DNA of 28,244 bases from IMG/VR virus record IMGVR_UViG_3300036798_000053, positions 1-28,244 of that record; one strand, given 5' to 3'. Under the pieces are notes generated by a model. It was not told where the DNA came from and ran no database searches. It saw only the letters and a program-made list of their open reading frames with translations. The DNA comes from a virus (Duplodnaviria; Caudoviricetes). Within the stretch, counting starts at the first letter, position 1; every line of letters starts with the position of its first letter. Below, one piece after another: positions 1 through 26,214 of this stretch. Position numbers and translations under genes: made by a program.

Positions 1-334
1 ACTGAGCACTGAGACCGTCCGCAGACGGAGCTGAGGTTGCGACAGCTCCAGCACTGTCACTGGAAGTGACAGTCGTAGGCCCAGCCGGGGTAAAGGCGGC
101 ACCGTTCTGGTCAAGCCAACTAACCTTTGCAGTTGCTACCTCGCCTGCACTGGTAAGAGTCTGAGTTGAAGCCACGAAAAACCTCCGGTCATTTTTTCCT
201 TCTCGGACAGCAACTACTCTACCGTTCCAGGACCAGGCAACGCCTTCAATCCTCTGATCGTAGTCGTGTTGCTTGTGATGATGGAAGTAATGACGCCAGC
301 TCTCATCCCTCCACTCGTCAGGCTCCTCTATCAT
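1..334 (-). CDS. Partial ORF running off the window; distal part is Ser/Thr/Ala/Val-rich and possibly Ig-like
   Basis: Manual translation from ATG 334 (ATGA overlap with the LAGLIDADG stop): MIEEPDEWRDESWRHYFHHHKQ...VATAKVSWLDQNGAAFTPAGPTTVTSSDSAGAVAT, open to the window edge. In-frame GTG at 175 is preceded by GGAGG. Confidence 0.65.
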   Translation of the reverse strand, partial: MIEEPDEWRDESWRHYFHHHKQHDYDQRIEGVAWSWNGRVVAVREGKNDRRFFVASTQTLTSAGEVATAKVSWLDQNGAAFTPAGPTTVTSSDSAGAVATSAPSADGLSAQ

Positions 335-735
335 GCGCCTTTTAGTTCTCGTTGAGAACGACGCCGGGACCACCCTGATCTTCTATGTGGAGGCTCAGCC
401 CAAAGCCGGTTCAAAACGCTTGATGCCTGAAGACGCTTAGGCATGGACAAGAAAGGCCAAAGCATTGCTATAACAGCTTGGGTGTCTGCCCAGCCGTTTA
501 CCGTGAGCGCCCATATTGGCTTGCTATTAGGACGAGAGGACGGCGAACTGTATGGACCACCAAGGTGCCCTACGCCACCAACAGCCCTCTGAAATCGTTC
601 CAGAGTGGTAGGCTCAATCTGATTAATACGAAGCCGCAAGCGCTGTCTCTGCTCCTGCTTAAACATGGCAACACAGCCTTCACCATCAAAAACCCCAGCA
701 GCCCAGGCAAGTTCTTCTCTATTGGGTGCGAACAT
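331..735 (-). CDS. LAGLIDADG homing endonuclease (single motif, free-standing)
   Basis: ELAWAAGVFDGEGCV motif, then RLRINQ...LERFQRAVGGVG and LWPFLSMPKRLQA. Start trimmed to ATG 735 (MFAPNREE). Confidence 0.9.
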   Translation of the reverse strand: MFAPNREELAWAAGVFDGEGCVAMFKQEQRQRLRLRINQIEPTTLERFQRAVGGVGHLGGPYSSPSSRPNSKPIWALTVNGWADTQAVIAMLWPFLSMPKRLQASSVLNRLWAEPPHRRSGWSRRRSQRELKGA

Positions 736-943
736 ACCCGTGAACATAGCCGGACTTGTCACCGTCCTGTGCAGACCAGTTGTAGCCGCCCTCAACGTGG
801 CTCAGGCTCTCCCTGGCGCTGTCTGTGGCGTCGGCCACAGGGTTGGACCAGTTGGGACGAGACTTCTTGACGGCGCCGTCAGAGGCACCCTCAACTAGCT
901 CTCCGGTCAAGTTGCGCTGAATACGGCCAAAGGGATCAGGCAT
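719..943 (-). CDS. Hypothetical phage protein (74 aa)
   Basis: TAATG coupling to the upstream gene with GGAGG RBS. Confidence 0.75.
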   Translation of the reverse strand: MPDPFGRIQRNLTGELVEGASDGAVKKSRPNWSNPVADATDSARESLSHVEGGYNWSAQDGDKSGYVHGYVRTQ

Positions 944-1233
944 TAGTCCTCCTCAGAATCTTCAGGATCTAGCACAGCGTGTGCATGTCCCGTGCCGAAC
1001 TGTCCACCCGACAGGTTACGCCCTGCGGCAGGTGGATTGCTAAAGAATGAACCAGGGGATGGAACACTCTGAATGCCCCGGCCTAGTGTACCTCCAAGGA
1101 AGCCGTGGGCATTGGTGTCCGTGGTAAAGTGCTGGTACTGCAGGCCAGCAGCACCGCCCGAGGGGTCGCCACCAGGGCCACCTTGGAACCCGGCCACGCT
1201 CTCACTGGGCTGCTTAGGGGAGACTCCAGGCAT
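943..1233 (-). CDS. Gly/Pro-rich hypothetical protein with LSGGQF motif
   Basis: TAATG coupling at both ends; GGAGG upstream. Confidence 0.75.
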   Translation of the reverse strand: MPGVSPKQPSESVAGFQGGPGGDPSGGAAGLQYQHFTTDTNAHGFLGGTLGRGIQSVPSPGSFFSNPPAAGRNLSGGQFGTGHAHAVLDPEDSEED

Positions 1234-1511
1234 TACTTGGTCCCTCCGACACTCTTTTGTGCAGCCACTGTGTTGTTAAGGGTTGAAGTGGCCTTCTCAT
1301 GGAGACCTGTCTTAAGCTTGGTACCGATCTCCTTGGCCCGGTCAGTAACCCACAGACCCTTGTCATAGCGGTGCTGGGTACCGTAACGAGATAGAGGAGC
1401 GTGCCTTTCAAATGGATCTAAAGGCTTACTACCCGAGACTGTGTTGACAAGAACGTGCTTGGCAAACTGCCCAAGGCTCAGCCCAGTATTTGTGTCGCCC
1501 AAGATACCCAT
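1233..1511 (-). CDS. Hypothetical protein with N-terminal LSLGQF motif
   Basis: Fills the operon slot; AGGA upstream; stop overlaps the next ATG. Confidence 0.7.
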   Translation of the reverse strand: MGILGDTNTGLSLGQFAKHVLVNTVSGSKPLDPFERHAPLSRYGTQHRYDKGLWVTDRAKEIGTKLKTGLHEKATSTLNNTVAAQKSVGGTK

Positions 1512-1520
1512 GAGATAATC

Positions 1521-1868
1521 CTACTGCTTATCGGTAATGTCCAAGGCGTCTAGCCTTTTATCTATACGGCGCATGAAGGCCAGCAGTCCACCCTGTGTCT
1601 CTCCGGTAAAGGGATCTTGGCTGCCCTTAATGAAGACGGTGAACTCTTCGATGGCCTTGCTCATAGTCTTGGCGTTCTCTTCAAGGACTGACACTCTGCT
1701 TGCTATCCCTGCTAAGCTGGCCTGCCGCTGGACTCTGCGGCGCTCTCTCCATGCCTTGAGCCTTCCACTCTGGGTGGTAAGAAACCACGTAGTCACAATG
1801 CCCGCTGCTGTACCGAGCACAATCCACAGCGCTGAAGCTTCCCCGGATACACTACTTAACGTCTGCAT
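1521..1868 (-). CDS. Membrane protein (N-terminal TM segment plus coiled coil), possible lysis accessory
   Basis: ALWIVLGTAAGIVTTWFL hydrophobic segment followed by a basic stretch and heptads. Confidence 0.7.
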   Translation of the reverse strand: MQTLSSVSGEASALWIVLGTAAGIVTTWFLTTQSGRLKAWRERRRVQRQASLAGIASRVSVLEENAKTMSKAIEEFTVFIKGSQDPFTGETQGGLLAFMRRIDKRLDALDITDKQ

Positions 1869-2290
1869 GGTTGAGGCTTGTAAATGGTATCGACGTACTT
1901 CAAGAAGGCATTGGCCCGTGCCTGGTTCTGTGAAGAAGTATTGGGATGGCTAGATGTGCCGATCAGAAGAGCAATGAACTGGTGCCACACAATGTCAACC
2001 TTGGCCCGAGACTCATTAGCCGTTAGACAAGCCTGGTAAGCGGTGTTCTGAATGGCCTGAACGTTGTTGTGGTTCTGATTAACAAGGAAGAAGACCGAGA
2101 AGGTAAAAAGGATGTCTATAAGGACAACAGCAGCGATTCTCCAGACCCGGCGAGAAGTCTTGGCCGACTTCTTCTCAGCCTGGATCGCCCTTGCTTCAGC
2201 ATTTCTGGACTCTTCCCGCAGCTCTTCGATCTTGTCGCTTAGACGATCTGCGGCAGCGACGATTTCCGCCTCATTCTCTGCCGTGGTCAT
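1856..2290 (-). CDS. Single-pass membrane protein (coiled coil, TM, Cys-containing external part)
   Basis: GAGGAGG RBS; RRVWRIAAVVLIDILFTFSVFFLV TM segment; ACLTANE and terminal PQPCRR resemble actinophage lysis-cassette membrane proteins. Confidence 0.75.
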   Translation of the reverse strand: MTTAENEAEIVAAADRLSDKIEELREESRNAEARAIQAEKKSAKTSRRVWRIAAVVLIDILFTFSVFFLVNQNHNNVQAIQNTAYQACLTANESRAKVDIVWHQFIALLIGTSSHPNTSSQNQARANAFLKYVDTIYKPQPCRR

Positions 2291-2435
2291 CGGTTTCCTC
2301 CTCTAACTTCTTATTGATAGACCCAAGTATGCCCTCAGCTTCAATGACTAGAGTGTGCAACTCTAAAGCCATACGGCGTTCGCTAGATACATGTTGGCCA
2401 ATCAAATCTGTTAGCAACATCTTGATTCGTCCCAC
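2271..2435 (-). CDS. Small helical hypothetical protein (54 aa, not in ORF track)
   Basis: Manual translation from GTG: MGRIKMLLTDLIGQHVSSERRMALELHTLVIEAEGILGSINKKLEEETDDHGRE; fills the gap; AGGGG upstream. Start uncertain. Confidence 0.55.
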   Translation of the reverse strand: MGRIKMLLTDLIGQHVSSERRMALELHTLVIEAEGILGSINKKLEEETDDHGRE

Positions 2436-2455
2436 ACACCCATTTCCCCTAAGGA

Positions 2456-2806
2456 TTACCAGCTAGCCCCGCCAAGGCCTAGTGGGTCTCCTCCGTTAGT
2501 GAGTCGGTCAGAGCCTTCGTAGCGAGTGTCCTCAAAGCCATCGCCAGGCTTGCGCACAGTAGACGGCTGCTGTGCGGGCATGTAACTTGGGTCGATCCGG
2601 TCAATGCCGAACACCTGCAGCACAGTGGCCTGGCGCTCAGCATAAGTCGGGTAGCCGAAACGAGGGGGCAGGTACTGGATCTGCGGTAGCGGCGGGCGCA
2701 GTGCCCGTAGCTGTTCAGCCGTAGCAGACTCAGCTACCCAGAAGGCATCCTCTGATTGTCTCTGGTAGTTGTTGGCCCATGGCTGGGCATAAGGCTCAAC
2801 TTGCAT
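2456..2806 (-). CDS. Pro-rich hypothetical phage protein
   Basis: AAGGTGGAG RBS; fits the operon. Confidence 0.75.
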   Translation of the reverse strand: MQVEPYAQPWANNYQRQSEDAFWVAESATAEQLRALRPPLPQIQYLPPRFGYPTYAERQATVLQVFGIDRIDPSYMPAQQPSTVRKPGDGFEDTRYEGSDRLTNGGDPLGLGGASW

Positions 2807-2815
2807 CTCTCCACC

Positions 2816-4300
2816 TTAGAACATCTTGAACTGTCCCTCATTTACATGAGGGATAGGGCGTGAGGGATAGGCCTGTTCATGAGATGGTATGTCCAGCCGA
2901 GGAGTCGCTGCCTTACGCTGGAGCTGCTCTTCACCCCACTGCATGGCTTGTGGCTGGCGCACTGAGGTACCTTGTCCCCGCTCCATGCCAGCCTGGCGAG
3001 CAGCATAGTCAGCAGCTGAGTGAAAGTTAGGCGTGCTGCCCATAGCCTTTTCTCTCTCACTCTTATCTCGGTAACCTACGTTTTGGATACCGTACCGCTT
3101 ATTTAGTTCCCGATCTGAACGGGGGTCGTCCCTAAACTCCTGCTTACGAGCAAGACCCCCGCCTCCTACCTTCCTACGGTAGGGCTTCTCTGAACTCAAG
3201 TGAGGGAACATACCACCACCACCACTATGCACGTCAGCGACAAAGAAGTCAGGCTCAGACTCGTCAAAAGAGTTAGCAAACGGCCCAGTCTTTGGACCCC
3301 ACTGCGACGATCCTAAAGGCGCAGACTTAGAGGGAGCATTACGAGATGTTCCCATTGGGTTGCCCCGGTCGGTATGTTGAAGCATTCGACCAGTCCGTAC
3401 TGCGTTAGCCGGTCGGCTTGTATTTGTTACCCCCTGCCGGTTAACTCCAGAAGTCATCTGGGTTGGGGGTACTCCCTCGGCGTGCTGCTTAATGACCGAC
3501 TCAGCTGCTTCGATGTTTGGTGACGTGCGCCGTCCCGGCTCACCACTGGTGAACTTAGTGTTGGGAGACACGTGGCTGATTGCACCCACATGAACAGAGG
3601 GGTCAATGTTGATTCCCTGCCCAGCAAGATGGCTGCGGGACTCCCGCATCATTTCCTTAGGCCGGTCTAAAGGCTCAGGTGCATCAGCCGGGTGCTCGTC
3701 ATAGAAATGCTTGGTAAAGGGAACAGGCTCACCAGTAGAGGCCCGATTGTGGCCCGCCATGTGTGCTCGCCAGACAGACTGATCCATCTGCCGCCCATAG
3801 TCTTCCTGCATCTGTCCCATGGACGTGCCGTGCTGCCTTAGCTTCGCTTCTGTATTTGCCCTGTCTTTATCACTCAGGTCTTCCCAACGAGGAGGGGTGG
3901 CCACAGCGTGTGGGTTCTCAAACCCCGGCAACTGCTGGTCCCCAAGCCCGTGTCCCTCGTTAGTGACACCGAGCGCATGGTATATCTGTGCCCGCTTCAT
4001 TTGCGTGCGGTTTATCTCGGGCATGCCCCGAGCACGAAGAAGGTTGTTATGGTGCGTAGTTACAAGGTCTTGTATGTCTCTTGAGCGCTCTTGTCCCCCC
4101 GGACTTGCTTCCCAAGCTGCTCGCTTACGTGTGGCACCGCCAATCTTTGAACGAGTAGACCGAGCCTTGGCCTGGCGTGCCTCTTCTCTCTCTTCCTTAG
4201 TCTTCTTTACAGGCGAGGGCGTTGCCCTGTTAGCCGTCTGGGCGGGTTCTGGCTCATAATCATCAAACATGTCCGTTGGACCGGTTTGTCTAGGCGGCAT
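2816..4300 (-). CDS. 494-aa protein with a divergent HhH-GPD (OGG1-like) DNA glycosylase/lyase core and C-terminal VNEGQF
   Basis: GPKTGPF with ADVH whose Asp is 19 residues after the Lys, then QAMQW; compare hOGG1 K249/D268/H270 and Q315/F319. The CDS is secure; the function is inferred. Confidence 0.6.
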   Translation of the reverse strand: MPPRQTGPTDMFDDYEPEPAQTANRATPSPVKKTKEEREEARQAKARSTRSKIGGATRKRAAWEASPGGQERSRDIQDLVTTHHNNLLRARGMPEINRTQMKRAQIYHALGVTNEGHGLGDQQLPGFENPHAVATPPRWEDLSDKDRANTEAKLRQHGTSMGQMQEDYGRQMDQSVWRAHMAGHNRASTGEPVPFTKHFYDEHPADAPEPLDRPKEMMRESRSHLAGQGINIDPSVHVGAISHVSPNTKFTSGEPGRRTSPNIEAAESVIKQHAEGVPPTQMTSGVNRQGVTNTSRPANAVRTGRMLQHTDRGNPMGTSRNAPSKSAPLGSSQWGPKTGPFANSFDESEPDFFVADVHSGGGGMFPHLSSEKPYRRKVGGGGLARKQEFRDDPRSDRELNKRYGIQNVGYRDKSEREKAMGSTPNFHSAADYAARQAGMERGQGTSVRQPQAMQWGEEQLQRKAATPRLDIPSHEQAYPSRPIPHVNEGQFKMF

Positions 4301-4610
4301 CCTTGACTCCTGACACGAACGCAGACAGCGTCTGTCCGCACTTCTTGCACTTGCCCTGGTGATGCAGTGCGCCGTTCTTCATCTTCTTACCATCGCCCTC
4401 GGCATCGAACTCACTCTTGCCCTTGCAGGTAAAGCAGTGAGCGTTAAGTGTCAACGGCTCGTCGGCCATGGGCACCTGCGTAGGGATACGGGACATGGGG
4501 CCGAAGGCGTGCGGCGCTACCTGCAAGGCCTGGGCCTGCAGTGCGGCGTGCGTCTGCACGGCGTCAGCCATGTACTGCGCATTGTAAAGGCGGCTAGGTC
4601 TCTTGGCCAT
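4290..4610 (-). CDS. Zinc-ribbon protein, DUF5679-like
   Basis: AHCFTCKGKSEF...MKNGALHHQGKCKKCGQTLSAFV matches the YCxKC...MKNG...GxCxxCG pattern as recalled. Confidence 0.75.
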   Translation of the reverse strand: MAKRPSRLYNAQYMADAVQTHAALQAQALQVAPHAFGPMSRIPTQVPMADEPLTLNAHCFTCKGKSEFDAEGDGKKMKNGALHHQGKCKKCGQTLSAFVSGVKDAA

Positions 4611-4978
4611 TACGGTGCCGGGTTTGCGTCACCCGGATCAGGGTCGTAGTCCAGTGGCTTAACGGTTCCAGCCAGAGGATGGGTGGCACGCAAAGTCTTG
4701 AGGTTATTGTTCCACTGAGTGGCACGGCCTGTGCCGTCTGATGGGGCGCTGGGATTGATCAACTGATCGGACTCATTAGCAGGCTGGGTCACCTGACCAT
4801 CCATAGAAGCACTGGTAGTGCTGGGACCAAGTGCGCCCACTTCCACGTCTGACCTGTCCGAGAACAGAGCGAGCTGAGCCTGCTGCACCAGAACATCAGG
4901 ACCGTCACGCCAGACCTGTGGCGTCCAAGGTGTCTTGTCTTCAGTGGCATCGCCACTGAACTGCTCAGTGGGCAGCAT
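4610..4978 (-). CDS. Hypothetical protein starting MLPTEQF
   Basis: AGGAG RBS; TAATG coupling to the next gene. Confidence 0.75.
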   Translation of the reverse strand: MLPTEQFSGDATEDKTPWTPQVWRDGPDVLVQQAQLALFSDRSDVEVGALGPSTTSASMDGQVTQPANESDQLINPSAPSDGTGRATQWNNNLKTLRATHPLAGTVKPLDYDPDPGDANPAP

Positions 4979-4980
4979 GA

Positions 4981-5199
4981 TTACGCTCCTTGTGAGGCCT
5001 TGGCAGCAGCTAGTGGACCGGAAGGATCAGTGCCGCCGCCCTTGTTACCACTGCGCATGCGACGGTCATTGAACAGACCTTTACCGGGCATCTTTCCCAT
5101 GCCAAGGCCCTCGCCACCCTCAGCTGCACCGGCAGCCTCTGCACCACCACCGATGCCAACAGCTTCTGCGACCTCTGGAATAGCAGCTACAAATGCCAT
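4981..5199 (-). CDS. Gly/Ala-rich small hypothetical protein
   Basis: AAGGAGG RBS; TGATG coupling. Confidence 0.7.
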   Translation of the reverse strand: MAFVAAIPEVAEAVGIGGGAEAAGAAEGGEGLGMGKMPGKGLFNDRRMRSGNKGGGTDPSGPLAAAKASQGA

Positions 5200-5354
5200 C
5201 AGGCAGCTTCCTCCTTAGGATGACCGCCATCGTACAGACAGCCAGGGTGGTCGCCGGTCAACATATAGATAATGTGGTCCGCAATCCCATAGGCGGGCGA
5301 ATCCTTGGGATAGATCCGACAGGTAGAACGGCAGAACTCCAGAACCTCGTCCAT
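5199..5354 (-). CDS. Small Cys/His-containing hypothetical protein (51 aa, not in ORF track)
   Basis: MDEVLEFCRSTCRIYPKDSPAYGIADHIIYMLTGDHPGCLYDGGHPKEEAA; TGATG overlaps at both ends. Confidence 0.65.
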   Translation of the reverse strand: MDEVLEFCRSTCRIYPKDSPAYGIADHIIYMLTGDHPGCLYDGGHPKEEAA

Positions 5355-5578
5355 CAGGCCTGCAGTTCGTGGTCTGGAGAGTAGGCAGGAGGCTGAGAAC
5401 CACGGCCAGCAGAGGCGAACACGCCCTGATAACCTGCCTCGTTCTGTGCCCTGGCCTGAGCAATCAATGCGTCAGGACTGGAGTGCCAGCAGTCAGGAGT
5501 CCAGACACCACCGGACCCACTACCCACTGGCTCAGTGGGAGAGTTCCCACTAGCAACAACCGTTCCAGTGTCAGACAT
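5354..5578 (-). CDS. Small hypothetical protein
   Basis: GGAGG RBS; TGATG coupling downstream. Confidence 0.7.
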   Translation of the reverse strand: MSDTGTVVASGNSPTEPVGSGSGGVWTPDCWHSSPDALIAQARAQNEAGYQGVFASAGRGSQPPAYSPDHELQA

Positions 5579-5726
5579 TCTTTTGCCTCCGATCCTTAAA
5601 GCCGGTTACAACCCGATCAGGGCCATTGTAATCCGTGGATAGGTGATTAGCACCTGCACTATCACGGGGCGGCTCGTCATAGCCCGGTTCCTGCCAGTTA
5701 ACTGCGTTCTTATCTCCGTCAGCCAC
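5571..5726 (-). CDS. Small hypothetical protein (51 aa, not in ORF track)
   Basis: GTG start in a TAGTG overlap with GAGGGG RBS: MADGDKNAVNWQEPGYDEPPRDSAGANHLSTDYNGPDRVVTGFKDRRQKNV. Confidence 0.65.
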   Translation of the reverse strand: MADGDKNAVNWQEPGYDEPPRDSAGANHLSTDYNGPDRVVTGFKDRRQKNV

Positions 5727-5893
5727 TACGCCCCCTCGGAAGGGCGAATAGGTTGACTCAGCTCGTCATACTGATCAGCAACAAAAGATTCTTTAACCTT
5801 GGGAGCGTCAGTGCTAGGGTCAAAGAGCATTGGATACCTCTCACTCAAGGGGCGGGGCTTGATCTCCTTGCGGCGGTCGTTGAAGTCAACCAT
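5726..5893 (-). CDS. Small hypothetical protein (55 aa, not in ORF track)
   Basis: GAGGAGGG RBS; MVDFNDRRKEIKPRPLSERYPMLFDPSTDAPKVKESFVADQYDELSQPIRPSEGA. Confidence 0.7.
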   Translation of the reverse strand: MVDFNDRRKEIKPRPLSERYPMLFDPSTDAPKVKESFVADQYDELSQPIRPSEGA

Positions 5894-5902
5894 TGCCCTC
5901 CT

Positions 5903-6232
5903 CTAGCCGGGAGTGAATGAAGTATTTGCCCGCCCGGTGCTCTTAACCACGTGCGCAGTGCTGTGGTTGTGCATGTACTCGTTAGACGTGTTTACACCAT
6001 ACACATGGTGATGTTCTACATCAGGGTCATCCCAGCGCACTGTTATGTGGTGCGAGGCCTGGGGATGGAACCTATCACGGACATCATCATGAACTCTTAC
6101 CGCTGTCACCTGGGGTGCGTCCGGTCCTGAGTGCTCTACTCCGTGCTGCTTAGCCGTGTCCCTGCGGACAGCCTCAGCCAGCATGCCCATGTGGGGACCG
6201 AACTGCTCACCTAATGACTCATGCGCTGGCAT
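5903..6232 (-). CDS. His-rich hypothetical protein starting MPAHESLGEQF
   Basis: GAGGG RBS; 109-aa ORF fitting the operon. Confidence 0.75.
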   Translation of the reverse strand: MPAHESLGEQFGPHMGMLAEAVRRDTAKQHGVEHSGPDAPQVTAVRVHDDVRDRFHPQASHHITVRWDDPDVEHHHVYGVNTSNEYMHNHSTAHVVKSTGRANTSFTPG

Positions 6233-6377
6233 CAGAGCCAGCCCTCTTCAGGTGCGCCAGGTGCTCAAGGTCCGACTCGGCCCAGCCCTTGCAGTCTCCG
6301 GTGTCGTTGAGAAGAGGCGGGTCAGGGTTTGGCCGGTTGTTCTCGTCGCCTGGCATCGGATCTACTGGAAGTCCCAT
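6219..6377 (-). CDS. Small hypothetical protein (52 aa, not in ORF track)
   Basis: MGLPVDPMPGDENNRPNPDPPLLNDTGDCKGWAESDLEHLAHLKRAGSDASA; fills the gap between neighbours. Confidence 0.55.
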   Translation of the reverse strand: MGLPVDPMPGDENNRPNPDPPLLNDTGDCKGWAESDLEHLAHLKRAGSDASA

Positions 6378-6389
6378 TACAAATCCAGC

Positions 6390-6932
6390 TTAGCCTTGCA
6401 TGCTTTGTTGCCTACGAGATGGCATCCCGTATGTAGGCCTTAGCAATGCAAGCTGCGACACTCTGTGCTGGTCAATCGTCACGATGGACTCTGACCCACG
6501 TGGCGCCATCTTGCTTTCAAGCACGGGCGTTGGCTGGAAAAACTGGTTTAGAGGGGCGTAACGCTCACCAGTAGTAGCTTGGCGTTGGATACCACTAAGC
6601 GGATTCATTTCCTCGGGCCAGAGCATGTCCCCAGGATCGATTCTCTCTCCAAGATGCACGCCTCTTTGGTAACTTCTTTGGTTTACCCTGGCTTTCAACG
6701 AGTCAAGAACTCGATCACTTCTACGATCAGTTATTGTCCCCAAGTATCCAGCGGGGAAATCTGCCCCAGGAATGCGATTAAACATCATGCGCCTGCCATC
6801 TAGGACAGAGCGCACCCACGGCTGGGGAGGCATGTTCCCGACGATGGCACCGGGGGTAATAGGAGCACCACTAGGGCCAGCCGTGTACAGCTGGCTCATG
6901 GCCTTGCCACCACCAAAGTTTGAATCAGACAT
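6390..6932 (-). CDS. Hypothetical phage protein (180 aa)
   Basis: TAAGGA RBS; contains GYLGTI...RSYQRGVHLGERID. Confidence 0.8.
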   Translation of the reverse strand: MSDSNFGGGKAMSQLYTAGPSGAPITPGAIVGNMPPQPWVRSVLDGRRMMFNRIPGADFPAGYLGTITDRRSDRVLDSLKARVNQRSYQRGVHLGERIDPGDMLWPEEMNPLSGIQRQATTGERYAPLNQFFQPTPVLESKMAPRGSESIVTIDQHRVSQLALLRPTYGMPSRRQQSMQG

Positions 6933-6940
6933 CTGATTCC

Positions 6941-7144
6941 TTACTTGTTGTTATAGATGCTCTTGGGCCAGCTCTGGTCCAGGCCACCTGATTGATGCGG
7001 ACCTGAATGGTACATGGACAGGTCACAGTAGACGGTGGTGAATCCACCACCGGCTGCAGGGATAACGGTCGTATTGCAGAACTGCTGCGGCTCGACTGTT
7101 GGAGTGGAGGTTGGGGTCGGGAGTTTAGGGTTGGGACGTGCCAT
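6941..7144 (-). CDS. Small hypothetical protein with C...C-x4-H-x3-H possible metal site
   Basis: AAGG RBS; FCNTT...YCDLSMYHSGPH. Confidence 0.6.
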   Translation of the reverse strand: MARPNPKLPTPTSTPTVEPQQFCNTTVIPAAGGGFTTVYCDLSMYHSGPHQSGGLDQSWPKSIYNNK

Positions 7145-7159
7145 GCCTTAAAGCATAAC

Positions 7160-7615
7160 TTAAGCAGGGTACCCAAGGTATTGCAGGCCATTAGCCGCAT
7201 CATTGACATACTTCAGGCCGTTCAAGGTAATGGGGCGGGCCTTATGGATCATGTCAATGGCCAGATCGTAGTCGATTCCGAAGGCGAACAATATAGCAAA
7301 GGCCGTGGATGGACCCCGGTTCTTGCCGTTGGTGCAGTGGGTATAGACCTTGGTATGCGGCTTGGCGGCTGCCATAAAGTAGTACTCGACTGAGTGCATG
7401 AACCACATGGGGTCCTTCGCCTGGCCGTCATCCTCTGTCGGGTTCCACAGACAGGAGATACGTGGATCAGCGCCCAGGTAATACTGGTCTGCTTCGTCCC
7501 AGGTGCAGTCAATGACATGGGTAATGCCCGCAAGTGCTAGCTGCTCAACGTCATCAGGGCTTTCGATGGCATTGCCGGTAGCCAGGCATGCTGTGATGAA
7601 GTCGAAGTCGATCAC
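7160..7615 (-). CDS. Dual-specificity / Cys-based (CX5R) phosphatase
   Basis: GITHVIDC, acid loop PTEDDG, P-loop VYTHCTNGKNRGPST, then AIDMIHKARP. Confidence 0.92.
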   Translation of the reverse strand: MIDFDFITACLATGNAIESPDDVEQLALAGITHVIDCTWDEADQYYLGADPRISCLWNPTEDDGQAKDPMWFMHSVEYYFMAAAKPHTKVYTHCTNGKNRGPSTAFAILFAFGIDYDLAIDMIHKARPITLNGLKYVNDAANGLQYLGYPA

Positions 7616-7998
7616 AGTCGCCGCATCCTTGAAGGGTCAACCTTACCTCGGAGTACTCCTCTTGCCTGCTGAATGTCGGGCATGCTTTCCCAGCCCGGAT
7701 GTGGGTCCTCCTCTACCTCATGCGGATGAGCATCGATCTCCCAGACATCATTGTGTCCAATCCCCCAGTTACCTGCTGACATGGTATGCGCAGCTTGCTT
7801 ATTCTTAAACACCCAGTTCATGTCACCGTATTGCTTGGGCTTACCGCTTTCATCCTTAGCCATGTCACCGCCAGGAACAAGGCCGTGTTCCTTGATGGAT
7901 GCTCGGTTACGGTGGTTAGACACGTGATAAACCTTGCCAAACTGGTCTTCGTTCAGATGCTCAAGTGGAGCGGGCTTGATCCGTTTCATTCGTCCCAC
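7612..7998 (-). CDS. ADP-ribosyltransferase-fold protein (KptA/Tpt1-like) with N-terminal LNEDQF
   Basis: VYHVSNHRNRASIKEHGLVP (YH..N..SI...GL.P), VWEID, EEDP and terminal GKVDPSRM. Confidence 0.72.
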   Translation of the reverse strand: MGRMKRIKPAPLEHLNEDQFGKVYHVSNHRNRASIKEHGLVPGGDMAKDESGKPKQYGDMNWVFKNKQAAHTMSAGNWGIGHNDVWEIDAHPHEVEEDPHPGWESMPDIQQARGVLRGKVDPSRMRRL

Positions 7999-8435
7999 TC
8001 GATCTTGCTGATGTCAGGGTTGTTAGGGTGCGGCCCTGCCAGCTTTCCTCTACGCACTACCTTGGCTGGTGCGAGAGAGACATGGTAAGGACTAATCACT
8101 CTCCCGCTGGGGAACTTACGGCTGGGGGCGGTCTTGTAAGGGGCAGTCAATCCTTCAGGCTGAACTTCGTACAGGTTTCGTCCGTACTGCTCTGTAGATT
8201 CTGGACTGTGCGACATCCATACGAACTGGTCATGTCCTCTTTCGGCAAAATCATCTGACCAGCGAGTCGAGTGTACCTTATATGAAACTTTTGATTCTCG
8301 GGAATGCACTGATGGAGGGACCATAGAGCCAGGCTTGATCATGTCCCCGACATTGAACTCCTGATCGCTGGCATGGTAAAGCTTGAACTGCTCACCTAGA
8401 GAGTTACTAGCGGTCATTGGGATCTTACTAGGCAT
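7986..8435 (-). CDS. Arr-like ADP-ribosyltransferase-fold protein with N-terminal SLGEQF
   Basis: LYHASDQEFNVGDMIKPG, VWMS, LYEVQPEG, KFP and SLAPAKVV parallel Arr motifs (FYHGT..L.VGD.L, IY.VEP.G, KKFP, S..PL.IV). Confidence 0.75.
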   Translation of the reverse strand: MPSKIPMTASNSLGEQFKLYHASDQEFNVGDMIKPGSMVPPSVHSRESKVSYKVHSTRWSDDFAERGHDQFVWMSHSPESTEQYGRNLYEVQPEGLTAPYKTAPSRKFPSGRVISPYHVSLAPAKVVRRGKLAGPHPNNPDISKIEWDE

Positions 8436-8437
8436 GA

Positions 8438-8839
8438 CTACCTATCATTAGGGTGAATCCACCCTTGGAGGAGGTTGGTCATCGTTCCTGTCTCCGCTAC
8501 CTCGTTCTTGAACGCAGGGTGGGAGCGCAAGTGCTTGACCAGTGACTCGGTGTCTGCCTGTGCCGTGATGAAGTGCTTGATCTCATGGTCGTAGTTCCAG
8601 ATAACGATCTTGATCTGATCCCGCATCTCGTTGTAGATAGGAGACTTGGGCAGCATGTCCATAAGCTTGATCAGTTCTTCCCTGACCCGGTCAGCGTGCA
8701 TGGCGGCATGCTTATGGTTGAACGCAGAGGAGTCAGCGATGTGGATGACCGTGGTAAAGGCGTCCTGCTTAGTGGGCGATGGCCCAGCGTCAGAGAACTC
8801 GTCGTACGTCAGCTTGGAGGCTGCCTCGTTACCTGCCAT
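8438..8839 (-). CDS. Helical hypothetical protein
   Basis: TAATG coupling; GAGG RBS. Confidence 0.75.
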   Translation of the reverse strand: MAGNEAASKLTYDEFSDAGPSPTKQDAFTTVIHIADSSAFNHKHAAMHADRVREELIKLMDMLPKSPIYNEMRDQIKIVIWNYDHEIKHFITAQADTESLVKHLRSHPAFKNEVAETGTMTNLLQGWIHPNDR

Positions 8840-9303
8840 TAGCGTCTGCCTCTCTGTGCCCTGGTAACACCACCCAGTGTCTTGCTCGCACTCTTGCCAC
8901 TGCCACCGAAGGCCTTGAGGATCTTGCCGACCTGCTTCATGGTCTGGTTGCTCTTTGGCTTGGCCGCAGCCTTTGGCGTGGCTCTGGGCTTGGGTGTGCC
9001 ACCGCCACCAGGATTCATGTTGTCCTTACGGGCTATGGCCTCGTCCTTGCGCCCCTGCCAGTAGTCGTCAGAAGAGGGGGTGCCAACTTGCTTCTCATAC
9101 TTCGGATTGGGCGGGATTGGTGGCATATGCTCTCTCTGCACAGCAGATGAGTGCGCATCAGAGAGCTGACGAAGAGATGTGCGCAAGTCATCAGGCGTTG
9201 CTTCACCAGGGGTCCCACTGATTTCCTCCTCTGAGTAGCCAAGGCTTTTCAGTACAGAGGAAGACTCAGGGTCTGAGGCAAACGCATCGTTACGACTGCC
9301 CAT
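8839..9303 (-). CDS. Hypothetical protein, acidic N-terminus and Lys/Gly-rich basic C-terminus
   Basis: AGGAG RBS; TAATG overlaps at both ends. Confidence 0.75.
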   Translation of the reverse strand: MGSRNDAFASDPESSSVLKSLGYSEEEISGTPGEATPDDLRTSLRQLSDAHSSAVQREHMPPIPPNPKYEKQVGTPSSDDYWQGRKDEAIARKDNMNPGGGGTPKPRATPKAAAKPKSNQTMKQVGKILKAFGGSGKSASKTLGGVTRAQRGRR

Positions 9304-9887
9304 TACTTTCTCCTATCAGTGAACAGCTGACCCTGCCTGGTATCTGCCTGGGCCGCTGCTACGTGTTGCTTTCGTTGTTCATGCATTATATCAGCTTCGT
9401 TCTCATGCTCCTGCAGGAGCGGCTCCCACGTGCGATTAGGCCTCTCATCGGGAGAGGGATACTTAACAACATCCTGGGGCTTTGGATTCTCTGTGACAGG
9501 AACGAACATGTGGCCCTGTTCCTGAGCAACAATGGCTCGGTGATGTCCATTCCAAAGTCGTGGTTCTATGGCACCATTTACAATACGGTGTCCAACGTGC
9601 AATGGCTCTTGGAGTCCACGGCTGGCAACATCTTGGGTAAGAGCATCCCAGTTAAAGGGGTGACCACGTTGTGGGTCATACATAGGATGGTCCCTAGTCA
9701 TCTGGCCCACGTTTAGATTCCGATGCTCAGGGCCTACACCAAGTGTTGTGAAGTCTCTGAGTTGAGAGGGAGAGTAGAGATCCTCAGAGACATCATTTGC
9801 TTTCATTCCCTTCAACTGTGTAATGGGCATAAACTGTTGACCTAGTGTGGGTATTTTCCCCTCAGGCCTCTGCACGGTACACCGCAT
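9303..9887 (-). CDS. ParB/sulfiredoxin-fold protein with N-terminal LGQQF
   Basis: LTQDVASRGLQEPLHV...LWNGHHRAIVAQEQGHMFVPV fits the ParB-N G..EP..V / GHHR / G...VPV signature. Start uncertain. Confidence 0.85.
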   Translation of the reverse strand: MRCTVQRPEGKIPTLGQQFMPITQLKGMKANDVSEDLYSPSQLRDFTTLGVGPEHRNLNVGQMTRDHPMYDPQRGHPFNWDALTQDVASRGLQEPLHVGHRIVNGAIEPRLWNGHHRAIVAQEQGHMFVPVTENPKPQDVVKYPSPDERPNRTWEPLLQEHENEADIMHEQRKQHVAAAQADTRQGQLFTDRRK

Positions 9888-10062
9888 CCGAGGGGGTCGT
9901 GGGCATGCCGTGGCGCAGCCTCGTTGTGTTGTCTACCGGGAGGCGGCGCTTGTTGTTGTGCTGGTCTTCCCAACGCTTTACTTGGCTCTCGTTCAGCTCA
10001 GCCCGGATCTGATCCAGCTTGTCGTTAAGTGCGTCCTGGGAAGGGGTACTAGGAATCTGCAT
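9862..10062 (-). CDS. Small hypothetical protein
   Basis: GGAGGAG RBS. Confidence 0.65.
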   Translation of the reverse strand: MQIPSTPSQDALNDKLDQIRAELNESQVKRWEDQHNNKRRLPVDNTTRLRHGMPTTPSDAVYRAEA

Positions 10063-10186
10063 GCTTCTCCTCCAGTGCGTTGAGCTGACGTTCGTGCTTG
10101 TTCAGCTGCCTTTGCTGAAACACGGTCCACACTGCCGCTCCTGCAGCCACACAGGAGCTAACAGCGACTAACCAGGTAGCAAGCAT
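10049..10186 (-). CDS. Small membrane protein (45 aa, not in ORF track) directly after the holin
   Basis: MLATWLVAVSSCVAAGAAVWTVFQQRQLNKHERQLNALEEKHADS: TM segment plus short coiled coil. Confidence 0.65.
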   Translation of the reverse strand: MLATWLVAVSSCVAAGAAVWTVFQQRQLNKHERQLNALEEKHADS

Positions 10187-10187
10187 G

Positions 10188-10421
10188 TTACGGAGTCTTG
10201 ACTGCGGCTGCCTTCGTCTGAGCCGTCACACCAGTGCTGTGCAGAACGACAGCAATGGCACCAGCAGCAGCCGACCAGGCAGCTGTCTCAACGCTATGGA
10301 CGTTGGGCACGCCACCAGAGGCAGCCAGTGAACCCAGGAAACCAGTAGCGAAGGTCGCAGTGACGGCCTCACCGAGGTTAACAAAGAACTTCTTCGTCCA
10401 GAGGACTGTGGGGGTAAGCAT
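10188..10421 (-). CDS. Holin (r1t-like)
   Basis: WTKKFFVNLGEAVTATFA resembles the r1t-holin N-terminus (T..FW...ERA..TFA); two TM segments; TAAGGAG RBS. Confidence 0.75.
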   Translation of the reverse strand: MLTPTVLWTKKFFVNLGEAVTATFATGFLGSLAASGGVPNVHSVETAAWSAAAGAIAVVLHSTGVTAQTKAAAVKTP

Positions 10422-10432
10422 GGTTTAACTCC

Positions 10433-10804
10433 TTATTTGGAAGTGACTGGGACCGGCACACCATCAGGCCAGCCATCGATGATACCGGACTGGAACTGAC
10501 CATTGTCCTCGTTGAGAGGGAAGGCGCCCACGTGACCGGCCACCATAGGCTCGGGCATGCCAGGCCGTGGGAAGATCGCACCCACATCAGTGATATTGAT
10601 GGCAGGGACCACCGGCTCGCCATTCCAGGTCGTCTTGACCGTAGGCATGAGGTAGTCAGAGCGCTGCTGCACGTGTGCTCCACGGCCCTGAGGCATAGAA
10701 GTCACGATCTTGTACGTGGCACCGATGCTCTCCTGCTGGCTGATGGGAGGACCACCGGCACCATAAGCGTCGGCCTCGCCTTCTCCAAACTCGTTAGCGG
10801 GCAT
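10433..10804 (-). CDS. Pro/Gly-rich hypothetical protein
   Basis: Start trimmed to ATG 10804 (MPANEFGE) with GAGG upstream, avoiding a long overlap. Confidence 0.7.
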   Translation of the reverse strand: MPANEFGEGEADAYGAGGPPISQQESIGATYKIVTSMPQGRGAHVQQRSDYLMPTVKTTWNGEPVVPAINITDVGAIFPRPGMPEPMVAGHVGAFPLNEDNGQFQSGIIDGWPDGVPVPVTSK

Positions 10805-11090
10805 AGGGGACCTCACTTCCTTCAGGCACAGGGTCCAGGTACGAGGGACCTTGCGGTTGGAACTTGTACGCCCGGTTCCAAACAATGCCGCCACGTGCTT
10901 GTGTCGGCTGTGCTTCCACATTGTACGCAGGGACAGAGCTACAAATCTTGTGCCCGCCGCAACAGACCCACTCGTCCAGCTGGTAGCTGTGTGGGTGGGT
11001 CAGGTCGTCCACGATGGCCTGCTGGTTGGCGTCCAGCTTCTGATCCAGATCCTTGTCGTACTTGGTGCCGACACGCTGAGCCTTACGCAT
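10794..11090 (-). CDS. Hypothetical protein
   Basis: GGAGG RBS; TAATG coupling. Confidence 0.7.
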   Translation of the reverse strand: MRKAQRVGTKYDKDLDQKLDANQQAIVDDLTHPHSYQLDEWVCCGGHKICSSVPAYNVEAQPTQARGGIVWNRAYKFQPQGPSYLDPVPEGSEVPYAR

Positions 11091-11386
11091 TAGAGAGCCT
11101 CCGTTTGACCTTCTTGGAAGGGAGCCAGTTCTCCACTCAGGTGAGTGGACCGGCGCCCGCCCTTGCCCGCCGTTACTTCGTACGCATGACCGTCAGTACC
11201 CTCGCCTGCATGGGTAACAGAAGGGAAGATAGCAGTTACCGTGCCGCTACGGTAACGACCCTTGGCCTTCACGGTGTCACCGACACCGTAGCTGGGAGGC
11301 TTAACCGTTGTTGAATAGATATTGGACGCTTCACCAACACGCCTACGCTGCGCATGCCCTAAGCGGCGGGTATCAGGACCTGACAT
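11090..11386 (-). CDS. Small SH3/Tudor-like beta-barrel protein
   Basis: YGVGDTVKAKGRYRSGTVTAI...AYEV...HLSGELAP; start trimmed to ATG 11386 with GAGGAG RBS. Confidence 0.6.
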   Translation of the reverse strand: MSGPDTRRLGHAQRRRVGEASNIYSTTVKPPSYGVGDTVKAKGRYRSGTVTAIFPSVTHAGEGTDGHAYEVTAGKGGRRSTHLSGELAPFQEGQTEAL

Positions 11387-11600
11387 GGATCTTTTACTCC
11401 TCTCCTGCGGTTGCAAGAGTTATGGGCTGCTCTTACGTTGTCAAACGTATCAGATCCACCCTTAGATACGGGAATCACATGGTCAACTGTGAACCCCATA
11501 GCCAGGCGTCCTGATATTTCAAGATCAATCTTCTCATTGCAGAGCCAACAAACTCCGTCATCCCGGGCTTGCTTAGACCGCAGTCAGTACAGGTCTTCAT
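11359..11600 (-). pseudogene. HNH endonuclease remnant, internally deleted and out of frame
   Basis: ATG 11600 gives MKTCTDCGLSKP; the -1 frame from 11568 gives ARDDGVCWLC...TVDHVIPVSKGGSDTFDNVRAAHNSCNRRRG to TAG 11359. That frame has a stop just upstream and no standard start. Confidence 0.8.
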
Positions 11601-11914
11601 GCTAGGTAACAATGTAACACAACTGCTGTGACATCACGCCCATTGTTCCCGGTAACAATCGTGTTCCCCGGCCTGAGGATCAGGTCTTCACCCTCCCCGG
11701 CCAGCTGCTGGCGGGCATGGATGGCACCCTTAAGGGCCTGGTTGACGGCCCCGGCACCTATGGCACGCAGGGTAATACGGGAGTGCTCATGGATGGAAGA
11801 GGTAACGGCCCCAGAGATGCCCTGTACGTTAGACGAGGGCCTGACGAAGATTACAGGGGGTACCGCTGCTGTTCCGCTAAGACTCCCCGGCTGAGGGGGC
11901 GACGTGGTCGTCAT
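11597..11914 (-). CDS. spoVS: SpoVS-family (Alba-like) protein
   Basis: V..SSNVQGISGAV...LRAIGAGAVNQALKG...AR...GEDLILRP is the SpoVS signature. Confidence 0.9.
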   Translation of the reverse strand: MTTTSPPQPGSLSGTAAVPPVIFVRPSSNVQGISGAVTSSIHEHSRITLRAIGAGAVNQALKGAIHARQQLAGEGEDLILRPGNTIVTGNNGRDVTAVVLHCYLA

Positions 11915-12287
11915 GATCGCCCAGTTTTACATGCTTCTTAAGCCGCTCCACGTCATATCCAATCAGGGCGTACTTAAACAGGGTAAAAAACATCTTAGGA
12001 GTTAGAACAACGATCCAAGGTTTTCTATCCATTCGGAGGAAGAGGGCAGCAAAAGGTACCCCACGATTCTTTCGCTGGATTTCTGTGGCTGGAAGTTTTT
12101 GATCAAGGACTGTAGAGACTCCAGTCTTACGTCCTGCGACTTGGAGACATAGAAGAGGTACTCCGTCGATGTCTCCGACATCGTCCAGACGACCAGCGCC
12201 CAGCGCTCTTCGGGCTTTCGTAAAGCCCTCTTCATTGAACATAGCAGCGACTTCACGTTCCCTCACCGGCCCCTTCCAATGCGTCAT
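11877..12287 (-). CDS. Hjc-like Holliday junction resolvase (PD-(D/E)xK), atypical catalytic motif
   Basis: KGPVREREVA...ARRA...DDVGDIDGVP..CLQVA; start trimmed to ATG 12287. Confidence 0.75.
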   Translation of the reverse strand: MTHWKGPVREREVAAMFNEEGFTKARRALGAGRLDDVGDIDGVPLLCLQVAGRKTGVSTVLDQKLPATEIQRKNRGVPFAALFLRMDRKPWIVVLTPKMFFTLFKYALIGYDVERLKKHVKLGDHDDHVAPSAGES

Positions 12288-12576
12288 GTTGTTCACCCCC
12301 ATTTCGGGCATTAGGACGCTCCTTATAGGGCCGCTGTCGCTTGACTCCACGGCGCTTCATCTCCCGCTCAGCGTGCTTGTGCATGCGCTCGGGCTTACCG
12401 TGCATGTACTCCAGGTGGCGCTGGCGCCAGGCCTCTGTGCACCGCTCACACCTACAGCGGAGGTTCCCGTACCCATTTGTGGTCCCATGGCGGGGGTCCT
12501 CAGGGTTATTCAGGAACTTCTCTCGGGCTGCCAGGGCCTTTGGCCCCAGTACCCTCTTCGATCTACTTGACATCAA
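12253..12576 (-). CDS. Basic Zn-finger-like putative DNA-binding protein
   Basis: RHGTTNGYGNLRCRCERC motif; AGGAGG RBS. Confidence 0.7.
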   Translation of the reverse strand: MMSSRSKRVLGPKALAAREKFLNNPEDPRHGTTNGYGNLRCRCERCTEAWRQRHLEYMHGKPERMHKHAEREMKRRGVKRQRPYKERPNARNGGEQHDALEGAGEGT

Positions 12577-13480
12577 GATTCCTCCTACTTACTGGAGCGT
12601 AGCACGTTTTCCTGTACGGACATTGGGCACACGTCCGGTGGCTCTTTTCAGCCCACTCAGGACGCTTGGGTACCCTACCTGAGGAGACATCCCGATTGAT
12701 GGCCAGGCACTCCTCAAGGATCTCCTCTATGAAGGTCGGCTCGTATTTGACCACGAACTCCTTGGGGGCAGCGGAAACGAACTTTGGTTCATAGATAAAC
12801 TTGATTTCTTCCCGCTCCAGGAAGTGGCAGTACAACATCCCCTGCTTTCGGTGAGATGGGAAGGGATGCTTGATGTTCCTCCACAAGGTGTCCCAGTCCT
12901 GGCCATACTTCTCGGACAGATGTGGAGCCTCCCACCGGATGGTGCCCGTGCCGATGGTCTTGATCTCAATGAGGCCGTCCGTGGTGGTATCGGCGTCGGC
13001 CCTGCCCACCACGTTGTACTCCCTGGAGCGGAAGGGGACCTCCCTGTACTTGAGGAAGCGCCGGGGCCTGCCACAGCGGGGGCACTCCAGTGGACTCAGG
13101 TCATCCCACAGCATTTCGCACGCCATGCAGAAAAACGAACCCTTGAGGATGCCCATGCCCCACCACTTCTGCTGCCACCAGTCATGGGTCTCGTTGCCGT
13201 GGTTAAATATGACCTCCATGACGATGGAGGTAGGCGTAGGCTCAGCAGGGACATCAGTCAATCGGTAATGGATGGCACGCTGACACTTCTCAGTGTGCGA
13301 CATCTCCGCTGGGTAGATGCCCGTGCGGTGCTTGCCTGTGTCTCCTACCTGCTGCACGTAGCGTGCAGTCCTGGTGACCAGCTTGTCATCCCTGAATGTC
13401 TCGCCTACTGTCTTTGCAAGGCTATGCATTGTCATGCAACCATTCTTTACGATGATGGGTCCAGTTAGATAGTGGGTCAA
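12563..13480 (-). CDS. Cas4-like (RecB-family) exonuclease
   Basis: N-terminal CQR, G...H, GRAD...LIEIKT, Q..LY, C-terminal CAQCPYRKTC (Fe-S) and inserted CxxC..CxxC. True start may be near 13436. Confidence 0.88.
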   Translation of the reverse strand: MTHYLTGPIIVKNGCMTMHSLAKTVGETFRDDKLVTRTARYVQQVGDTGKHRTGIYPAEMSHTEKCQRAIHYRLTDVPAEPTPTSIVMEVIFNHGNETHDWWQQKWWGMGILKGSFFCMACEMLWDDLSPLECPRCGRPRRFLKYREVPFRSREYNVVGRADADTTTDGLIEIKTIGTGTIRWEAPHLSEKYGQDWDTLWRNIKHPFPSHRKQGMLYCHFLEREEIKFIYEPKFVSAAPKEFVVKYEPTFIEEILEECLAINRDVSSGRVPKRPEWAEKSHRTCAQCPYRKTCYAPVSRRNLDVK

Positions 13481-13818
13481 TGTTTGTCACGTCTGGCTAC
13501 CGTTACCTGTCCTGGAAATCGTACATCTTCAAGAGAGTAAATAGTTCGGTCCCTAAGTTTGTTCCTAGCTCGTACAATCTTACGCCGGTCTCTTTCAGAA
13601 GTTCCCCCCCAGACTCCGTAACTCTCTCCATTGTCGATTGCGTATCGGAGGCAGTCTGATCTAAACGGACAAGGCCGTTCTCCATCCATTCCATTACAGA
13701 TGTTCTTAGCACGTAATACCTCCGGTGATGATGCCTTGTAAAACTCGTCGGTTCGTCCAATACACTTCCGTTGCTCATTCATAAGCCAGAGCGGGGTCTT
13801 AGTCCAGACTCTCGGCAC
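13477..13818 (-). CDS. whiB: WhiB-family transcription factor
   Basis: Four Cys (C, AKNIC, CP...C), YA, and GVWGGTSERDR. Confidence 0.95.
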   Translation of the reverse strand: MPRVWTKTPLWLMNEQRKCIGRTDEFYKASSPEVLRAKNICNGMDGERPCPFRSDCLRYAIDNGESYGVWGGTSERDRRKIVRARNKLRDRTIYSLEDVRFPGQVTVARRDKH

Positions 13819-14104
13819 GGTGGTCGTCCTCAGGGATTAGAACCAGCCGCTGGTTTCCTAGCTCGATATGCAAGACAGGAGACTTGTCCTGGATAGCCGC
13901 ATGATAGCGCAGCTGCTTCCAGTCATCTTCCTTGATTGTGATTTGGCGGTTCCCCCTAAGAACCGTCTTGCATTCGATGAGTGAATCGTCTGTGTGCATG
14001 TCCTGGGGCTTGGCTCCAGAACCAGAGCCAGCATGTTGCTTGGCTCCGTAGCGCTTAGCTACGCCCTTCTCCTGTGCCCTGGAGACTCGTCTACGAGGGT
14101 CCAT
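13799..14104 (-). CDS. Holliday junction resolvase-like PD-(D/E)xK nuclease
   Basis: QEKGVAK...GSGSG...D...LIECKT. Confidence 0.8.
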   Translation of the reverse strand: MDPRRRVSRAQEKGVAKRYGAKQHAGSGSGAKPQDMHTDDSLIECKTVLRGNRQITIKEDDWKQLRYHAAIQDKSPVLHIELGNQRLVLIPEDDHRAESLD

Positions 14105-15128: not shown

Positions 15129-15138
15129 TAGTTCCTTA

Positions 15139-17609: not shown

Positions 17610-17619
17610 ATTGTATGCC

Positions 17620-18579: not shown

Positions 18580-18590
18580 TGTTTCTCCTA

Positions 18591-18941
18591 TCAGGGCGTC
18601 CGACCAAGGATGCCATGGGCTTCATTGATGAATCGTCTTGAGAATGGCTTGCGATAGTTGGGGTTTATGACACCCTCTTCCTCAGCTAGCTGGATCATAG
18701 CGAGTACTTGTGACTCGGTGTACAGCCAGGGGTTGGGATAAGAGGGGAGCCGAATCTTCGGCTTACAGATAATACCCTTCCGCTCCATGGCACGAATCGA
18801 TGCCACGCTCCGGTTAAGGGCAAGGGCCAGGCCTGCACGCTCAAAGAAGATCACGATCTGGCCGTGATAGTCCAGGGCATGCCATTTGCCGTCCCATGAG
18901 TACTGGGGTTGGTATAGAGCGGGACGCTTACGCCGAGGCAT
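18591..18941 (-). CDS. MerR-like helix-turn-helix DNA-binding protein
   Basis: LALALNRSVASIRAMERKGII..P...LYTESQV; start trimmed to ATG 18941 with AGGAGG RBS. Confidence 0.8.
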   Translation of the reverse strand: MPRRKRPALYQPQYSWDGKWHALDYHGQIVIFFERAGLALALNRSVASIRAMERKGIICKPKIRLPSYPNPWLYTESQVLAMIQLAEEEGVINPNYRKPFSRRFINEAHGILGRTP

Positions 18942-26201: not shown

Positions 26202-26214
26202 TCTTATCTCCTTC

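Follow-up and report, generated by a model that had tools for sequence, protein, structure and literature searches.

In BRock-like actinobacterial myoviruses, unrelated accessory proteins share a short QF end motif with a possible role in loading the phage head

Results

The window analyzed here is a complete 28-kb virus record (IMG/VR IMGVR_UViG_3300036798_000053, all 28,244 nucleotides) that, judged by its sequence, is a piece of a BRock-like actinobacterial myovirus, and the element in question is a short peptide motif, L-[SNG]-x(1,2)-Q-F (the QF tag), which recurs near the ends of otherwise unrelated proteins. All genes of interest are encoded on the minus strand. Tail, DnaC, DnaB, primase, helicase, PolI, RecA, WhiB, Cas4-like, and SpoVS-like genes occupy the right part of the window while the left part is a series of small genes, almost none of which can be assigned to any family. 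The closest cultured phages are the Streptomyces phages Alone3, LuckySocke, GiJojo, pSt2308, and BRock (PolI identity 32-34%); the gene order agrees with that of Alone3, and matches to gene 6390-6932 are restricted to these five phages. BRock is a 112-kb myovirus (PMC7453282). The clade is very common in soil and freshwater, and about 2,400 stored stretches in IMG/VR match the capsid pattern of the BRock type.

A preliminary description of the window had listed eight strong and two weak copies of the motif, and a six-frame scan recovered all ten at the same positions. The strong copies (997-1014, 1464-1481, 2828-2845, 4958-4975, 6200-6214, 7939-7956, 8385-8399, and 9831-9845, all on the minus strand) are in frame within predicted genes and are also present in the curated gene set. 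Each ends within 19 residues of the N-terminus or 17 residues of the C-terminus, which bears out the terminal bias that had been claimed. The pattern [LV][GNSP]x(1,2)QF is enriched over shuffled sequences: the 32 left genes (3,691 amino acids (aa); 331-11386) contain it 8 times whereas 5,000 within-protein shuffles gave 0.35 on average and never more than 4. It is absent from the 22 replication and tail genes (5,530 aa; 11597-28214; 0.43 expected). The tagged proteins are otherwise unrelated, the top cross-match among the eight (E 0.099) being the tag itself. Because this pattern was derived post hoc from the window, the relatives are the independent test. Our analysis adds to the preliminary description a longer leader, a match to the N-termini of cellular Arr enzymes, and two additional common motifs. 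The proteins of the window that carry the QF tag or the second motif, F-x-D-R-R, are as follows.

943-1233, minus strand: 96-aa Gly/Ser/Pro-rich protein; LSGGQF (997-1014) 17 aa before the C-terminus; orthologues read MSGGQF (G002), MSGAQF (G001), and DPSAQF (G020)
1233-1511, minus strand: 92-aa orphan with no relative in the set; LSLGQF (1464-1481) ending at residue 16
2816-4300, minus strand: 494-aa helical protein of no assigned family; C-terminal VNEGQF (2828-2845) overlapping clamp-like QFKMF (2819-2833); internal QLPGF (3920-3934)
4610-4978, minus strand: 122-aa disordered-looking protein; LPTEQF (4958-4975, residues 2-7); clamp-like QLALF (4862-4876); orthologues read LPNQQF, LPTEQY, and LPTQEF
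4981-5199, minus strand: 72-aa protein; second motif FNDRR (5059-5073)
5571-5726, minus strand: 51-aa protein; FKDRR (5586-5600) close to the C-terminus
5726-5893, minus strand: 55-aa protein; start MVDFNDRR (5870-5884), identical to that of a small gene located between gp72 and the portal in several relatives
5903-6232, minus strand: 109-aa orphan; leader MPAHESLGEQF with the tag at 6200-6214
6941-7144, minus strand: 67-aa Pro/Thr-rich open reading frame (ORF), an uncertain member; weak copy VEPQQF (7079-7096)
7612-7989, minus strand: 125-aa protein, likely of ADP-ribosyltransferase (ART) fold, with a PARP lead; LNEDQF (7939-7956)
7986-8435, minus strand: protein with predicted Arr-like ART fold; LGEQF (8385-8399)
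9303-9887, minus strand: ParB/Srx-like protein; LGQQF (9831-9845, upstream start required); C-terminal QGQLF (9321-9335) and FTDRR (9309-9323)
10433-10804, minus strand: 123-aa Pro/Gly-rich protein; weak copy LNEDNGQF (10493-10516)

The copy at 9831-9845 lies inside its protein only if translation starts at ATG 9887, which overlaps the preceding gene by 26 nucleotides; the start chosen by the gene caller (ATG 9830) leaves the tag out, yet relatives bear a tag before the same domain. The start region 9830-9887 also has an in-frame ATA directly after a purine-rich stretch, and the reads of one soil DNA run, possibly the source of the record, contained no variant there. As for the weak copies, LNEDNGQF is retained in the G002 orthologue and missing in that of G001, and the gene encoding VEPQQF is without a relative in the set.

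The relatives comprised 22 IMG/VR contigs and Alone3, with genes predicted by a purpose-made simple caller. Their consensus is M-S-A-x-D-N-L-[SN]-x-x-Q-F, besides a shorter form L-G-x-Q-F. G002, the nearest relative, bears seven tags at N-termini, mostly on genes other than those tagged in the window. In a quick PolI tree, tag-rich genomes are scattered over distinct branches. For a wider survey, the DNA-level pattern M[SATG]Ax[DE][NHYD]L[SG]xxQF was searched in viral contigs and 185,579 cellular genomes. The viral matches form 51 loci on 47 contigs; 48 of the 51 are at a called gene start, 46 have at least two neighboring tagged genes, and 35 have at least three. Of 85 cellular loci, 10 are at a gene start and none has at least three tagged genes (five of the 85 have little flanking sequence). 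A capsid gene of the BRock type is present on six of the eight leader-pattern contigs that were checked. The motif is conserved in orthologues and extends across a large phage clade. Our search of largely open-access literature returned no description of the motif; we consider it real and apparently not described before.

The motif is preserved as protein and not as DNA, in that different copies within one genome use different codons for the L, S/N, Q, and F residues. When proteins were selected solely for [NH]L[SNG] near the start, with pattern seeds excluded, QF followed in 41 of the 94 non-ART proteins and in 24 of the 40 ART-like ones (a split made with a crude pattern) but at only 6 of 326 internal control sites. 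Variants at this position are QW, QL, LF, QY, and EF. The strict N-terminal placement of the capsid-targeting sequence (CTS) of phage T4 is not seen; copies are C-terminal and internal as well. Among 75 relatives of the 494-aa protein (2816-4300), 54 are at least 380 aa long, and QF is within the last 45 residues in 22 of these 54 (3.8 on average and at most 10 in shuffles), in many cases as a complete motif such as NLNxEQF; in six, it is within the first 45 residues. Because the motif shifts between the N- and C-terminus inside one family, it is a protein-level, position-independent motif. The reading given in the preliminary description, a modular short linear motif carried by disordered peptides as well as by enzymes that are unrelated to one another, is supported in the window, in orthologues, and in relatives.

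With a looser pattern, we obtained 248 tagged gene calls in 89 clusters, numbers that include redundancy and chance matches. Pfam had no match for 58 of 70 chosen tagged proteins, the matches including Arr-ms (three), GNAT (three), 2H (one), KTSC (one), and DUF7178 (two). The tag heads Arr-like ARTs, GNATs, a 2H phosphoesterase, ParB-like proteins, and disordered proteins, and in the complete genome G019, of which 135 of 194 proteins were scanned, all six Arr-ms proteins are tagged. The motif is under selection at the protein level, independent of its position and of the attached fold, on recognizable enzyme classes. In the window, 7986-8435 has no Pfam match of its own, and no viral locus was found for it; its model (pLDDT, predicted local distance difference test, 61.6; residues 1-15 disordered) matches Arr in Foldseek (E 1.1e-4; Z 9.2, root-mean-square deviation 3.6, 96 aligned), and L, Q, and F of its tag are invariant in eight sequences. 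Of the two ARTs that had been proposed, this one is supported as an Arr-type fold, and 7612-7989 is a likely ART on the strength of a PARP lead (16% of one cluster); among the relatives of the latter, P0011 has the leader MSAEDHLGQQF, and P0010 is untagged but contains YNDRR. For 9303-9887, the earlier ParB/Srx assignment stands as a ParB/Srx-like lead. The protein encoded by 2816-4300, a putative glycosylase in the preliminary description, has a confident helical model; its family has no Pfam match apart from a weak DUF7178 match in 2 of 57 members, no PDB sequence match, and no significant profile comparison. Small tagged proteins are more basic than others (median net charge per residue +0.012 vs -0.015, from non-independent sequences) and also His-rich. 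T4 internal proteins are likewise described as basic (PMC9026906), and ART, GNAT, and 2H domains have been reported as head-packaged or MuF-fused in the accounts of PMC5512222 and PMC9503650.

Discussion

Altogether, we lean, by a modest measure, toward a model whereby L-[SNG]-x(1,2)-Q-F is a portable end motif that loads accessory enzymes into the head via a core head protein, without being cleaved, for injection. We infer the binding partner, the packaging, and the injection. In this model, the tag would bind to a conserved head component during assembly, and the tagged enzymes would be packed together with the DNA and then injected to act early in infection by ADP-ribosylation, acetylation, and nucleotide breakdown. 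No gene family co-varies with the tag-rich genomes, as a dedicated receptor gene might; because no accessory gene tracks the tag, we suggest as its partner one of the core head proteins (the major capsid protein at its inner face, the scaffold, or the portal).

Gene location bears on this model in two ways. The tags shun replication and tail genes, with 2 of 251 accessory genes tagged in the replication module and 0 of 82 in the tail module, yet show no concentration at the head operon. Single tagged insertions at the head operon are suggestive: one is upstream of the portal in G001, one is in the scaffold-capsid interval of G020, and in G011 the orthologue of 2816-4300 is placed between gp72 and the portal. 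Moreover, the core gene upstream of the portal frequently begins [LI]-[AS]-P-x-P-Q-F. In the cluster between the SpoVS and gp182 genes, 12 of 167 accessory genes are tagged, six of them from the window. In G018 and G019, no late-promoter motif common to the upstream regions of tagged genes was evident by eye.

Several observations weigh against head loading. At the head and neck, only 5 of 172 accessory genes are tagged, two of the five doubtful, which does not differ from the replication module (p 0.13), and most tagged genes are in other accessory regions (64 of 1,775), so that the location evidence for packaging is modest. The window itself has no head genes, and the packaging argument therefore rests on the relatives. 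N-terminal enrichment is significant in 3 of 15 motif-blind relatives (G001, G002, and G011) and not in the other 12, which include the cultured Alone3; several of the 12 nonetheless carry one to a few tagged proteins. The tag is also missing from some orthologues: gene 8839-9303 is untagged whereas its G002 orthologue begins MSNLNPQQF, a gain or loss between close relatives, P0010 is untagged, and 32 of the 54 long relatives of the 494-aa protein have no C-terminal QF. Chromosomal Arr enzymes, which have no capsid to enter, begin with the same leader. Finally, our counts take in related sequences and hence non-independent events.

The head genes of the relatives speak to the fate of the motif. 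These genomes encode a terminase, portal, scaffold, and sheath, and their head operons are ordered portal-scaffold-capsid without a protease gene, the capsid protein having no evident propeptide. Neither an S78 head protease nor MuF (PF04233) was found in any of five complete relatives, with positive controls; an S77 search had no match anywhere, its control included. Because S78 and MuF are lacking in these five genomes, a cleaved T4-type signal is less likely, and the prohead protease, one of the partners proposed in the preliminary description, is weakened as a candidate by the missing S78 and by the C-terminal copies. For the same reasons, we regard as the least probable of all the readings weighed here that the motif is a cleavage site for propeptide trimming by a prohead protease, of the kind known from T4 and giant phages. 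That F immediately precedes the first strand in the ART members, and that a Peptidase_A4 gene adjoins the terminase in one complete relative, would fit such a site; cutting at the C-terminal copies, however, would free just 2-5 residues.

Strings resembling the tag occur in head proteins of the clade, namely L[TS]AxQF in the capsid protein, one at the scaffold end, and LGE[EQ]F in the portal; they were set aside and not counted, and the capsid position reads QI in three tag-rich genomes. Because such strings are present in these proteins, they evidently arise in folded proteins, and L-[SN]-x-x-Q-F, we presume, fits a common helix-capping pattern. The tag could then be a generic helix cap, a stability or degradation signal, or a label for loading by the tail or ejection route instead of a head-binding peptide, all of which we judge quite unlikely: a generic cap would not keep to the termini of accessory genes, as the scarcity of QF at internal control sites indicates, and the tail-module accessory genes are untagged. 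A terminase LSQQF was dropped as a chance match that is not conserved.

A cellular counterpart of the leader hints at its origin. Among the 10 cellular gene-start matches, three belong to chromosomal Arr genes whose products begin M[AT]AxDDLSSxQF-YHGT (L288:5001-5417, L296:5001-5417, and L309:4620-5036), and among 120 Arr homologues with 205 Arr domains, many of them tandem double-Arr proteins, the first domain often starts with the same 12-residue frame. The phage and cellular leaders are likely homologous, and a bacterial Arr leader is probably the source of the tag, which would have begun as the N-terminal arm native to an Arr-family enzyme before being reused. The motif might even be a relic without common function, left when new genes took over the ribosome-binding site of expanded Arr paralogues together with their first 12 codons. 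Its length and register equal those of the cellular leader M[AT]AxDDL[SR]SQ[QR]F, the Pfam model begins at F in Arr, and G019 has six tagged Arr paralogues; nevertheless, full motifs also stand at C-termini and internally, non-ART proteins keep Q and F despite codon variation, and among the 205 cellular Arr domains QF is at this place in only 19 and the strict tag in nine, making a relic very unlikely. Separately, in an actinobacterial metagenome-assembled genome, the full phage leader is carried by a single isolated gene (L321:5001-5480) with no obvious prophage around it.

Two further motifs, both chosen post hoc, accompany the tag. There are 34 instances of F[NHKRTY]DRR in 3,206 proteins, against 1.3 on average and no more than 3 in shuffles, and the window has four. 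A small gene lying between gp72 and the portal in several genomes also contains it, as does the Alone3 terminase at its C-terminus. In the 218 tagged proteins, QxxLF/MF was counted 23 times vs 3.4 in shuffles; it is not enriched in 3,647 others (85 vs 76.6). It is often within 10 residues of QF and is strongly conserved at the C-terminus of the 494-aa family, where 24 of the 54 long relatives have it in their last 30 residues (shuffle mean 0.16). With Q at position 1, hydrophobic residues at 4 and 5, and a place near the C-terminus, it fits the beta-clamp-binding consensus Q-L-x-L-F as given in PMC4549789. The clamp-like sites in the window (2819-2833, 3920-3934 (QLPGF), 4862-4876, and 9321-9335) are all on tagged proteins.

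This abundance of QxxLF/MF, often close to QF, invites the explanation that the QF tag serves to dock accessory enzymes on a single conserved machine of host or phage in the infected cell (replisome, RNA polymerase, ribosome, or protease) and has no packaging role, which would also accommodate the leader shared with cellular Arr enzymes and the majority of tagged genes lying away from the head operon. We consider it rather unlikely. QF does not match the consensus of PMC4549789 and stands beside the clamp motif, not in its place; phage replication proteins are untagged; and the 85 cellular matches include no cluster of tagged genes. Within the head-loading model, a separate clamp-like QxxLF would steer part of the cargo to the host replisome. 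It is tempting to speculate, and we do so tentatively, that this mostly uncultured clade has a peptide-barcode cargo system in which an Arr-derived, uncleaved QF loads dozens of interchangeable enzyme families into the head in the manner of encapsulins, F-x-D-R-R provides an address at the portal or elsewhere in the head, and QxxLF sends the injected enzymes to the host sliding clamp.

By analogy, the QF tag would resemble in its working a T4 CTS or an encapsulin cargo-loading peptide, and it belongs to neither. The T4 CTS of IPI, IPII, IPIII, and Alt is likewise a peptide of ~10-12 residues on unrelated small basic proteins and an ART in a myovirus; as described (PMC9026906, PMC5694885), it is N-terminal only, is removed by gp21, and has been shown to direct packaging whereas the QF tag is also C-terminal or internal, is found in a clade with an SPP1-like portal in which S78 was not detected, and has an inferred packaging role. 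Encapsulin cargo-loading peptides are terminal, of ~10 residues, and borne by unrelated cargos in or outside the core operon, and they are described in PMC8229669 as binding uncleaved inside a shell of HK97 fold, on its inner face; the QF tag differs from that account in sequence and in being mostly N-terminal, and its shell would be a DNA-filled phage head, not an encapsulin. MuF-fused effectors and phage polyvalent proteins include the same cargo classes (ART, GNAT, and 2H), proposed as head-packaged (PMC5512222, PMC9503650), but there the effector is fused to a folded domain in one polypeptide while the QF proteins are stand-alone products of small genes with a common peptide in genomes where MuF was not found. 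Arr (PF12120, rifampin ADP-ribosyltransferase) shares the modeled fold of 7986-8435, and some chromosomal members share the 12-residue leader; the phage members are short, divergent, and multiple, and their leader is also on non-ART proteins. The beta-clamp motif, lastly, is fitted by QxxLF/MF at the C-termini of tagged proteins and not by QF, as far as the published consensus goes.

If the model holds, a tag of 6-12 residues makes injected cargo readable from sequence for a whole clade, and many hypothetical genes become candidate counter-defense or host-takeover enzymes. This would bear on the way in which phages that have neither MuF nor a T4-type core select the proteins they inject. The tag would also offer a simple means of bringing reporter proteins into the heads of Streptomyces phages and exemplify a targeting signal that evolved out of an enzyme's own N-terminus. 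Even with a host protein as partner, dozens of unrelated phage genes sharing three short motifs amount to a testable interaction code.

Other features of these genomes deserve mention. The gp72 orthologues of Alone3 (e.g., L224:11864-12283), which lie between the terminase and portal, are highly conserved Gly/Pro-rich proteins of 131-145 aa with no solved relative and are candidate minor head proteins; the capsid profile had two weak matches only in the PDB. In or beside the tagged cluster of the window are a dual-specificity phosphatase-like gene (7160-7615), the SpoVS-like core gene (11597-11914), and an HNH/homing endonuclease-like gene (331-795). G019 encodes a proteasomal ARC/Mpa-type ATPase (L224:598-2115), a GTP-PEPCK (L227:8006-9937), and, beside the terminase, a Peptidase_A4 (L224:2112-2717). 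PolI of G002 is split over two ORFs (21125-23060), and the capsid gene of G020 is in two parts ~255 nucleotides apart (33550-34806), in each case possibly by an intron or frameshift.

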